In this document: piece after piece, positions 9,336 through 59,232 of the stretch
Layout: each line of letters begins with the position of its first letter
Numbering within the stretch: the first letter of the stretch is position 1
Assembly (NCBI RefSeq): GCF_024502345.1
Contig: NZ_JALDNN010000001.1
Reading direction: 5' to 3' (one strand)
Source of the DNA: Escherichia coli
Lineage (GTDB): Bacteria > Pseudomonadota > Gammaproteobacteria > Enterobacterales > Enterobacteriaceae
Length of the DNA: 64,000 nt
Position numbers and translations under genes: made by a program
The notes under the pieces: model-generated
Seen by the model: only the letters and a program-made list of their open reading frames with translations
The model's database searches: none
Told to the model about the DNA's origin: nothing

Positions 9336-10610
9336 TTATTCACCAGATGCCTGTTGCGCTTCCGGCTTACCATAAATCAGCAACGGTTTGCTTTGACCAT
9401 CAATTACCGACTCGTCGATAACCACTTTTTCGACATCTTCCATGGACGGCAGATCGTACATGGTATCGAGCAGTGCGGCTTCTACGATGGAACGCAGGCC
9501 ACGGGCACCGGTTTTACGCGCCATCGCTTTCTTAGCGATAGCATCCAGCGCCTCGTCACGGAATTCCAGATCCACGCCTTCCAGATTAAACAGCGCCTGA
9601 TACTGCTTGGTCAGGGCGTTTTTCGGCTCTTTGAGGATCTGAATCAGAGCTTCTTCGCTCAGTTCATTCAACGTTGCGACAACCGGCAGACGACCAATAA
9701 ACTCAGGGATAAGACCAAACTTGATCAGATCTTCCGGTTCAACCTGCGCCAGCAGCTCGCCTTCGCTTGCTTTGTCGGACTTCGCTTTTACCGTCGCGCC
9801 AAAACCAATGCCGGAGCCGGTTTCTACACGGTGGGAAATCACTTTATCCAGACCGGCAAACGCACCGCCACAAATAAACAGGATCTTGGAGGTATCAACC
9901 TGCAAAAATTCCTGCTGCGGATGCTTACGCCCGCCCTGCGGTGGAACGGCAGCAACAGTACCTTCGATCAGTTTCAACAGTGCCTGCTGTACGCCTTCAC
10001 CGGAAACGTCACGGGTAATAGACGGGTTGTCCGACTTACGAGAAATCTTGTCGATTTCATCGATGTAGACAATACCACGCTGTGCTTTCTGGACATCGTA
10101 GTCGCATTTCTGCAACAGCTTCTGAATGATGTTTTCAACGTCTTCACCCACATAACCGGCTTCGGTCAGTGTAGTCGCGTCGGCCATGGTGAACGGAACA
10201 TCCAGCAGGCGCGCCAGCGTTTCAGCCAGCAGCGTTTTACCGGAACCGGTCGGACCGATCAGCAGAATGTTACTTTTGCCCAACTCGACACCATTGCTGG
10301 TATCGCCGTTGCGCAGACGTTTGTAATGGTTGTATACCGCGACCGCCAGCACTTTTTTCGCCTGTTCCTGGCCGATAACGTAATCGTCCAGGTGGTTGCG
10401 AATTTCATGCGGCGTCGGTAGCGCACTGCGTTCACGATGCGGTGCAACTTCTTTAATCTCTTCGCGAATGATGTCGTTACATAAATCAACACATTCGTCG
10501 CAGATATACACGGATGGACCGGCAATCAGCTTGCGCACTTCATGCTGGCTTTTGCCGCAAAAAGAGCAATACAGCAATTTGCCTGAGCCATCTTTGCGTT
10601 TATCTGTCAT
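9336..10610 (-). CDS. clpX: ATP-dependent Clp protease ATP-binding subunit ClpX
   Basis: 424 aa ORF with N-terminal zinc-binding CSFCGK...CDEC and Walker A GPTGSGKT. Confidence 0.97.
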
Positions 10611-35060: not shown

Positions 35061-35600
35061 ATGAATATTAACGTTTTTCGACTGATCCTGCTGGGAAGCC
35101 TATTCAGCCTTAGCGCCTGTGTGCAGCAAAGTGAAGTGCGACAGATGAAACACAGCGTCAGCACGCTGAACCAGGAGATGACGCAACTCAATCAAGAAAC
35201 AGTCAAAATCACTCAGCAAAACAGGCTGAATGCAAAATCCAGCAGTGGGGTTTACCTTCTGCCTGGAGCGAAAACACCGGCAAGACTGGAAAGCCAGATC
35301 GGTACTTTACGTATGTCGCTGGTGAATATTACGCCTGATACAGATGGCACCACCCTGACACTACGTATTCAGGGTGAGTCGAATGATCCCTTGCCCGCAT
35401 TCAGCGGAACTGTTGAATATGGGCAAATTCAGGGAACAATAGACAACTTTCAGGAAATCAATGTACAGAATCAATTGATTAATGCCCCTGCCAGCGTCCT
35501 CGCCCCCAGCGATGTTGATATTCCGTTACAGTTAAAGGGGATTTCTGTGGATCAGTTAGGCTTTGTACGTATCCACGACATTCAACCTGTTATGCAGTAA
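35061..35600 (+). CDS. yajI: lipoprotein YajI
   Basis: ORF track 35001..35600; start placed at MNINVFRLILLGSLFSLSAC (lipobox) for 179 aa. Confidence 0.85.
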   Translation: MNINVFRLILLGSLFSLSACVQQSEVRQMKHSVSTLNQEMTQLNQETVKITQQNRLNAKSSSGVYLLPGAKTPARLESQIGTLRMSLVNITPDTDGTTLTLRIQGESNDPLPAFSGTVEYGQIQGTIDNFQEINVQNQLINAPASVLAPSDVDIPLQLKGISVDQLGFVRIHDIQPVMQ

Positions 35601-36844: not shown

Positions 36845-36955
36845 ATGCCGGATGCGGCGTAAACGCTTTGTCCGGCCCACAAAAGCACGTAAATTCAATA
36901 TATTGCTGAAATAACGTAGGCCTGATAAGCGTAGCGCATCAGGCAATTTTACGTT
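36845..36955. repeat. REP/BIME cluster between tsx and yajD
   Basis: gccggatgcggcgtaaacgctttgtccggcc and taggcctgataagcgtagcgcatcaggc units. Confidence 0.6.
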
Positions 36956-36959
36956 TTAA

Positions 36960-37307
36960 TCACTTCTTCTTGTTCATCATCGCTTTCAGGTCAGCGAATG
37001 GGTTGTACTTCGCTTCACCGACATCTTTCTGCGCATCTTCCCCTGCGATAACGGTCGTACCATACTGATCCGCTTCGGTATATTTCGAATGCTCATGATC
37101 GTGGCAATAGAGACAAAGCAATTCCTAGTTACTGCCATCTTCCGGGTTATTGGTATGGTCGTGATCAATGTGGTGAACAGTAAGTTCACGCAGGTTGGAA
37201 TAGACAAACTCGCGGGAACAGCGACCGCAGACCCACGGATAGATTTTTAATGCTTTTTCGCGATAGCCGCTTTCTAACCGCGCATAGTTTTTTGGGATGA
37301 TAGCCAT
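36960..37307 (-). pseudogene. yajD: yajD (HNH-nuclease-family protein) interrupted by an in-frame TAG after codon 60
   Basis: ATG at 37305-37307; 60 codons to TAG at 37125-37127 (plus strand cta); the same frame continues ELLCLYCHDHEHSKY...NKKK to TGA at 36960, giving 115 codons in total. Confidence 0.75.
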
Positions 37308-37382
37308 GAAAAGTTACCTGGATGAAATGTAGAGTTACGCGCAGTTTCCCAAGATGCGGGGATTATCGCAATCTCCATACAT

Positions 37383-37415
37383 CAAAAAAAATCCCGATCT
37401 TCTGACCGGGATTTT
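37383..37415 (-). terminator. secF (yajC-secDF operon) terminator
   Basis: Reverse complement gaaaatcccggtcagaagatcgggatttttttt. Confidence 0.5.
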
Positions 37416-37435
37416 CAACATCAACGGGAAATTGA

Positions 37436-41830: not shown

Positions 41831-42901
41831 TTACTCCCCGACGCGCTCATTAATTGCCTGCGGATTGTACGTGATAAACATCGCATCACCGTAACTAAAA
41901 AAGCGATATTTCTCTTCTACCGCTGCTTTATAGGCGTTCATGGTGTGTTGATAACCGGCAAAGGCCGAAACCAGCATAATCAGCGTCGATTCCGGCAGGT
42001 GGAAGTTTGTCACCAGCGCATCGACCACTTTGTACTGGAAGCCCGGATAGATAAAGATTTGGGTATCGTCAAAGAACGGTTCGATAAGATCGTTTTTCGC
42101 CGCCTGAGCCGCGCTTTCCAGCGAACGTACTGAGGTGGTGCCAACCGCAATCACCCGGTTACCGCGCGCTTTCGCCGCCAGTACCGCGTCTACCACATCC
42201 TGCGGCACTTCAGCGTATTCCGAGTGCATGATGTGATCTTCAATGGTGTCGACGCGCACCGGCTGGAAGGTGCCCGCACCAACGTGCAACGTCACAAACG
42301 CCATCTCCACGCCTTTGGCGCGTAATTTTTCCAGCAAAGGTTCGTCAAAATGCAGACCTGCGGTCGGGGCTGCAACCGCGCCCGGTTTTTCGCTATAAAC
42401 GGTTTGATAAAGTTCGCGGTCAGCGTCTTCGTCCGGACGGTCGATATACGGCGGCAGCGGCATATGGCCGATGCTATTGAGAATATCCAGCACCGAGCGT
42501 TCATCATTAAATTCGACTTCAAACAGTGCGCCGTGGCGCGCGGTCATTGTTGCGTTAATACTTTCGTCATCGCCCAGCAGCAGTTCTGCGCCAGGTTTTG
42601 GCGCTTTCGAGGCGCGAATATGCGCAAGAATGCGTTTGTCGTCGAGCATCCGTTCAACCAGCACTTCAATCTTGCCGCCGCTGGCTTTACGCCCAAACAG
42701 GCGCGCCGGGATCACGCGGGTATTATTAAAAACCAGAAGATCGCCGGGGTTGAGCTTATCAAGTAAATCGGTGAAAGTACCGTGCGTCAGCGCGCCCGTC
42801 GGCCCGTCCAGCGACAGTAAACGACAGCTACTGCGTTCAGGCATGGGATAGTGGGCAATCAGGGATTCGGGCAATTCAAAGGAGAAATCGGTAACGCGCA
42901 T
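41831..42901 (-). CDS. queA: S-adenosylmethionine:tRNA ribosyltransferase-isomerase QueA
   Basis: 356 aa [22 protein letters not shown]. Confidence 0.97.
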
Positions 42902-58776: not shown

Positions 58777-59232
58777 TTATTCGCTACGGCGGGCAATAAT
58801 TTTTAGCGCAGCAATATTATGCGTTTTACGCCGTAACTGATCGAATCGTCTCATCCCTATTCGCCTGTCAGCAGCACGCAGAATATTCACTAACCCCCAT
58901 TTATCGCTGGTAAATTGTTTTGTTAACAGCTCCGCTTTTGGGGTATCAATATATTCACGCAATAAATCAGAAATTGAACAAATATCCGTCAGGTAAGGAT
59001 ACCAGCAAGTTTCACCGTGAAAATTACGCACTCCACCGTTACCTGCAATAAAGTCTTTCGGGTAATCCCAGATCACGTTTTTATCCAACGTGATCCAATA
59101 ACGCGGTAAATCGGTGCTTCCACCATTTAGGCTGCGCATGGGGTAACGGGTACAGTGAATTTGCAGGTTGATCGTTGGCGTCAGTAAGTCATAGATCTCC
59201 CGCTGTAACTTGCTCCAGGGGCGTTGTGTCAT
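58777..59232 (-). CDS. hypothetical protein, 151 aa (ykiA-region ORF)
   Basis: ATG at 59230-59232 preceded by GAGGA; overlaps the upstream ORF stop as ATGA. Function not recognised. Confidence 0.55.
   Translation of the reverse strand: MTQRPWSKLQREIYDLLTPTINLQIHCTRYPMRSLNGGSTDLPRYWITLDKNVIWDYPKDFIAGNGGVRNFHGETCWYPYLTDICSISDLLREYIDTPKAELLTKQFTSDKWGLVNILRAADRRIGMRRFDQLRRKTHNIAALKIIARRSE

Follow-up and report, generated by a model that had tools for sequence, protein, structure and literature searches.

A likely recent, spontaneous amber mutation interrupts the HNH nuclease gene yajD in an Escherichia coli genome

Nucleases of the HNH or beta-beta-alpha-metal type have a structural zinc site that a second Cys pair completes and a catalytic metal that is held in part by the residue after this pair. 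A PDB search for a close structural homologue of YajD returned only a marginal match to one such enzyme, T4 endonuclease VII (PDB 1e7d/1en7; HNH/beta-beta-alpha-metal, four-Cys zinc site), together with spurious matches to C2H2 zinc fingers. The match to endonuclease VII is weak (E = 0.008, YajD residues 15 to 73). In the alignment, the HHIDHDH and LLCLYCH stretches of YajD lie opposite NHLDHDH and LLCNLCN of the phage enzyme, and C65/C68 fall on its second Cys pair, a correspondence to be read at the level of this marginal similarity. Unlike endonuclease VII, YajD is much smaller, is without a known substrate, and is no phage resolvase. We claim no membership for YajD and use the match solely to place what a truncation of the protein would remove.

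The lesion described here also has a familiar genetic counterpart in the classical amber (UAG) mutants of E. coli, in which the same Trp TGG-to-TAG transition leads to a shortened polypeptide. Such mutants are in principle suppressible by supE- or supF-type tRNAs. In contrast to the classical mutants, the yajD amber codon is of natural origin, in a lineage from the wild, and affects a gene without a known phenotype.

On YajD itself, our literature search found almost nothing, with no data on nuclease activity and a deletion study in Salmonella as the sole source. In Salmonella Typhimurium, deletion of yajD left growth unaffected at stressful temperature, pH, salt, and H2O2 (PMC3878590). Virulence of the single mutant in mice was likewise unchanged (competitive index, 1.2), and sensitivity to H2O2 appeared only in the double mutants cbpA/yajD and ychN/yajD (PMC3878590).

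The interrupted yajD frame and its surroundings

The window, that is, the whole 64-kb stretch of E. coli DNA analysed here, carries yajD on the minus strand (37307..36960), with the order secF-yajD-tsx and the spacing found in strains TUM13936, Ec-U9-1, and E110019. Translation of the window and the list of open reading frames (ORFs) place the start ATG at 37307-37305 and an in-frame TAG at 37127-37125, after 60 sense codons ending in ...HTNNPEDGSN. Past the TAG, the frame remains open for another 54 codons (ELLCLYCHDHEHSKYTEADQYGTTVIAGEDAQKDVGEAKYNPFADLKAMMNKKK) up to a TGA at 36962-36960. The sense positions total 115, the length of RefSeq WP_000974813.1, "HNH nuclease YajD." This is the arrangement proposed in the initial annotation, a yajD gene truncated by TAG after residue 60 with the downstream frame intact and a full-length protein of 115 amino acids; translation and the ORF list bore out all of its coordinates, and the RefSeq protein its length.

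Aligned base by base, the gene agrees at 347 of 348 positions with the wild-type yajD of E. coli TUM13936, which shares its start and stop codons and encodes WP_000974813.1 (YAJD_ECOLI; 115 amino acids). The sole difference lies in codon 61, where TGG (Trp61) is replaced by TAG, corresponding to C to T on the plus strand at 37126. The 3' half of the gene is thus base for base the same as in the functional allele, with no secondary decay, and it is because of this identity that the frame 3' of the TAG is open. The relevant features are as follows.

36960 to 37307, minus strand: whole yajD frame of 115 codons and a TGA, now a pseudogene with its interruption in codon 61 (translation, alignment, NF008448)
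37125 to 37127, minus strand: amber TAG replacing Trp61 (TGG); the mutated base is 37126, plus-strand T versus C in relatives (alignment)
37125 to 37307, minus strand: shortened ORF of 60 amino acids plus stop, retaining the first CxxC (C27, C30) and the HHIDHDH stretch (ORF list)
36960 to 37124, minus strand: orphaned 3' part, 54 codons plus TGA, with the second CxxC (C65, C68), His69, later His residues, and an acidic/basic tail (translation)
37387 to 37416, minus strand: terminator-like hairpin with a run of T, in the spacer that separates the stop codon of secF (37436) from the start of yajD (consensus scan, in which one match equals the chance expectation)

The orphaned 3' part is untranslated unless the TAG is read through. 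Re-initiation at a TTG just past the stop (ORF 37121..36960) was considered and set aside as improbable, since the end of the sole purine-rich motif, AGGA, lies 1 nt ahead of the TTG, which would be too near for a Shine-Dalgarno sequence.

Position 37126 lies outside any homopolymer and within neither a Dcm (CCWGG) nor a Dam (GATC) motif (plus strand, TTCCCAGTT). In the whole of yajD, only six transitions can create a stop codon, two at W25, two at W61, one at Q81, and one at Q93. The mutation also generates a CTAG tetranucleotide, normally infrequent in E. coli, within CTAGG (minus strand ACTAGGA, window 37124-37128).

The hairpin suggests that transcription of secDF is, at least in part, kept from running into yajD. 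The tsx gene is convergent, and since no gene of the same orientation lies downstream of yajD, its stop codon should be without polar effect. The yajD-tsx intergenic region contains a REP-like palindromic sequence at about 36850-36950 (gcctgatgcgctacgcttatcaggcctac), and a 501-base query including this region had a median of 16 matching places per E. coli genome.

The interruption of yajD is an isolated event within the window. When 48 coding sequences of strain Ec-U9-1 were mapped to positions 13,247-62,415, an internal stop was found in yajD alone and the 47 others were intact, nusB differing merely by its use of another stop codon. No gene that is intact in Ec-U9-1 had an indel in the window, and the larger ORFs in the first 13 kb had the lengths expected. 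The 47 intact genes and the lack of indels rule out both genome decay and an assembly of poor quality. Decay of the Shigella type, which the distance of the window from complete genomes (see below) had led us to suspect, was rejected in view of these 47 of 48 mapped genes and of the occurrence of the exact SbcC and MalZ proteins of the window in E. coli records. 

Identity to the best complete genome is mosaic, at about 97.6-98.2% in yajR-thiI and dxs-yajO, 96.5% in yajI, and 99.3-100% in most neighbouring genes, with the mosaic segments at window positions 21371-30751 and 35061-35600; this pattern suggests past recombination. The yajI gene, intact in the window, is frameshifted in E110019 (L020:11708-12246), and an SF0329-family gene (58777-59232, minus strand) that is annotated as frameshifted in Ec-U9-1 forms an intact 151-amino-acid ORF in the window.

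The part of the nuclease domain that is lost

NCBIfam NF008448, the equivalog profile "YajD family HNH nuclease" (cutoff, 87), gives the protein with Trp61 restored a score of 210.3 bits, over profile positions 2-113 of 113. On this profile match, the gene is a yajD orthologue at the DNA level. The 60-amino-acid product covers positions 2-60 of the same profile only. The HNH domain (Pfam PF01844) occupies residues 27-75 of the restored protein, with the entire 47-position model covered, such that the stop cuts off about 15 of 49 domain residues, the last third of the domain.

A complete HNH domain would have both Cys pairs and the terminal His; the encoded product lacks C65, C68, and H69. The Pfam domain bounds and the alignment with endonuclease VII agree on this point, in line with the earlier proposal that the truncation removes the CxxC-H half of the HNH module. 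Since the second Cys pair and the following His are both located 3' of the stop, the fragment would be expected neither to fold nor to cut DNA, and the allele would be a null. From the domain architecture we infer a loss of yajD function, the 60-amino-acid product being almost certainly inactive.

Age and distribution of the stop codon

Compared with 5,426 complete E. coli genomes, the window showed an identity of at most 99.2% over 15 kb, and it is hence not from a K-12, B, C, or W laboratory strain. A 71-mer carrying the TAG had an exact match in none of the 4,897 complete RefSeq E. coli genomes in which the site was matched, every one of them showing at least one mismatch. In a scan of JGI metagenomes, a 43-mer with the TAG gave no matches, but the wild-type control gave three only, too few for the scan to carry weight.

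Closer relatives were found among assembled contigs. The exact SbcC and MalZ proteins of the window are present in a few dozen E. coli assemblies, and as a sister set we used six contigs carrying the exact MalZ protein (L010-L015), at all of which a 115-amino-acid YajD had been called. Five of them (L010-L013 and L015) align end to end with the window at 99.91-99.98% identity over 21.8 kb, and L014 aligns in two pieces at about 99.86%. The four sisters that align without gaps, L010-L013, all have TGG at codon 61 and differ from the window at 4-11 positions in about 9.3 kb and at 5-19 of 21,818 positions. Across the 21.8 kb, the window has a base found in none of the four at position 37126 only. 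On these comparisons, the TAG is private to the window genome, or to a very small clade, and is brand new in evolutionary terms. Such a young age also explains why the downstream frame is without decay. Both the alignment with TUM13936 and the near-identical TGG-bearing sisters thus favour a recent single-base nonsense change, for which TGG to TAG had been suggested at the outset as one possibility.

Some further variation was seen among the sisters. At 37333, 26 nt upstream of the yajD ATG, the plus strand has A in the window and in L010 and G in L011-L013 and in more distant strains; up to 1.5 kb from where yajD starts, L011 departs from the window at this site and at the TAG only. In L010, 8 of the 19 differences from the window are clustered in 112 bp of queA (window 41990-42101), as if a short patch had been recombined into this sister. 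In L015 (18615-19493), a 6-bp deletion shortens the Tsx nucleoside channel from 294 to 292 amino acids.

The same shortened protein is present in public records. A product identical to the 60-amino-acid fragment has been deposited as STK37146.1, "putative endonuclease [Escherichia coli]," and as a TPA entry marked "partial," and it occurs on 83 contigs. Among the records that we looked up for this product, a true TAG at codon 61 was present in three (L002:10181-10183, L003:7258-7260, and L004:10181-10183), whereas the contigs L006-L009 simply end after codon 60 (locus position 10180). Since the records include such contig ends, most of the 83 contigs are uninformative, and their count overstates the frequency of the allele. 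In one further record, L005, codon 61 is a TGA that stands 11 bases from the tip of the contig and may be an error.

Contig ends of this kind are common. Many public contigs of Escherichia, Klebsiella, Enterobacter, Salmonella, and Yersinia break within yajD, between codons 57 and 71; one 61-amino-acid form of YajD is found on at least 1,000 contigs, and the proteins P0002-P0015 belong to such breaks. Our guess is that they stem from branching of the assembly graph in a stretch conserved across species. Whatever their origin, breaks inside yajD inflate the counts of "truncated YajD" proteins. Two of the contigs with short YajD products also differ in gene content. In L005 (9397-10194), a parD/parE toxin-antitoxin pair is inserted between secF and yajD, giving a spacer of 755 bp versus 128 bp in the other loci, and L005 (1641-3086) and L009 (2255-3712) have an additional gene of 481-485 amino acids between malZ and acpH, with no recorded Pfam match, that is absent in the window.

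The three records with a true TAG share the 60-amino-acid product and the amber codon with the window but not the genetic background. L002, L003, and L004 are the same as one another over 9.3 kb and differ from the window at 112 sites (1.2%) in 9.29 kb, which rules out a clone shared with the window. Two of these differences are synonymous sites inside yajD, located 116 and 77 nt 5' of the TAG, and on the downstream side the next one is found at 206 nt. The complete genome nearest to the clone is that of the aEPEC strain E110019, with 6 differences in 11.7 kb, among them the TAG itself; E110019 has TGG, and its yajD is intact. The distinct background of the clone and its closeness to a TGG-bearing strain mark a separate origin; the identical W61 TAG has thus arisen at least twice, independently. 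Recurrence of this kind is unsurprising because so few transitions in yajD create a stop. The finding of the same nonsense codon in three independent samples of this other clone means that the allele is viable in nature.

The possibility that the short protein is a natural form of YajD, which had been named at the outset as an outcome that would overturn the reading of a truncated gene, can now be judged in two parts. The 60-amino-acid product is indeed public, and an unrelated clone carries the same TAG. A natural short form, on the other hand, is ruled out, given that the TAG was found in 0 of 4,897 complete genomes and that several of the 60-amino-acid records are contig ends; the TAG marks a rare null allele.

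Origin of the amber codon and its consequences

We consider it very likely that a spontaneous and recent amber nonsense mutation has turned yajD into a null pseudogene in the window strain. A G:C-to-A:T transition at 37126, in the isolate or its immediate ancestors, would have changed codon 61 from TGG (Trp) to TAG. Translation would then halt after residue 60, keeping the first Cys pair and the His-rich strand and losing C65, C68, and H69, which would leave an HNH nuclease with neither a complete zinc site nor a complete beta-beta-alpha-metal active site. The fragment is expected to be unfolded and inactive, in other words a null allele, and if YajD is dispensable, the lesion would be tolerated and would drift or decay further. 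The two features that mark a recent nonsense pseudogene are both seen here, a sense codon at the site in the closest relatives and no decay downstream of the stop. Presumably, the null is neutral and the base call is correct. Traces of full-length YajD could still arise by low-level natural read-through of UAG.

The most serious competitor, which we nevertheless think unlikely, is that the T at 37126 is an error made in sequencing, in the consensus, or in assembly, or became fixed in laboratory culture, and that yajD is intact in nature. The site is a singleton, the one position in 21.8 kb at which the window stands apart from all four close sisters, and the TAG is absent from every matching complete genome. 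However, a private single-nucleotide difference is also what a genuine recent mutation is expected to look like, and other signs of poor base calling were missing, the 21.8 kb aligned with the sisters being free of indels and the 47 other genes free of frameshifts and stops. The site is not a homopolymer, nor does it lie in a Dcm or Dam motif, and a second clone genuinely carries this very change, as at least three independent samples show. Far less probable still is a locus from which full-length YajD continues to be made, either with an amber-suppressor tRNA or by read-through favoured by the UAG-G context. The fully intact frame 3' of the TAG would suit this reading, but it is equally typical of a very recent null. 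Natural isolates seldom carry strong amber suppressors, and E. coli reads through UAG at a very low basal level. Positive evidence for suppression is lacking, the 64-kb window containing 0 tRNA genes, and its distance from all complete genomes means that it does not derive from a K-12 strain with supE44 or supF. A programmed event would, moreover, call for a stop that is conserved in orthologues, and this TAG is conserved in no relative, the complete genomes having none and the sisters and E110019 having TGG.

The recurrence of the stop raises the question of selection. Conceivably, the loss of YajD is adaptive, or codon 61 is a mutational hotspot, with stops recurring through selection for nulls. 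In favour of this are the W61 TAG on two backgrounds 1.2% apart and the TGA at the same codon in L005. A search by the exact 60-amino-acid product will, however, reveal stops at codon 61 only, which amounts to ascertainment bias, and two of the six stop-giving transitions in the gene fall at W61. On a rough assumption, one or two neutral recurrences would be expected among the hundreds of thousands of public E. coli assemblies. The L005 codon, so close to a contig tip, may be an error, and the absence of the TAG from complete genomes indicates that the allele is not spreading. A hotspot driven by methylation was rejected, there being no CCWGG or GATC at 37126. We regard this alternative as quite improbable and hold equally low the more specific idea that W61 stops recur because inactivation of an orphan HNH nuclease brings a niche advantage or because the codon serves as a conditional, suppressor-dependent switch. 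If true, yajD would be under recurrent loss-of-function selection in natural E. coli. Least probable of all, to the point of being nearly negligible, is import of the TAG by homologous recombination from the other TAG-bearing clone. Between +105 and +386 of the gene region, the TAG included, L002 matches the window at every base, but import would require a tract of less than 282 bp that is free of any other marker, the flanking L002-specific differences at +65, +104, and +387 are absent from the window, and a single transition is far more parsimonious.

We thus return to a recent spontaneous nonsense mutation as the preferred reading. The yajD allele of the window is a private nonsense pseudogene of an ordinary, known kind and not a new biological feature, an error in base calling being less likely. 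In the annotation of this genome, yajD should accordingly appear as a pseudogene with an internal stop, not as a 60-amino-acid "putative endonuclease." We infer that loss of YajD is tolerated, in keeping with an allele that is null and neutral or close to neutral. With this locus, nature supplies a knockout of an HNH nuclease that is widely conserved but uncharacterised, and it weakly supports the view that wild E. coli can do without YajD, in agreement with the Salmonella deletion. Together with its TGG-bearing sisters, the strain offers a ready near-isogenic pair in which a phenotype of YajD may be sought.
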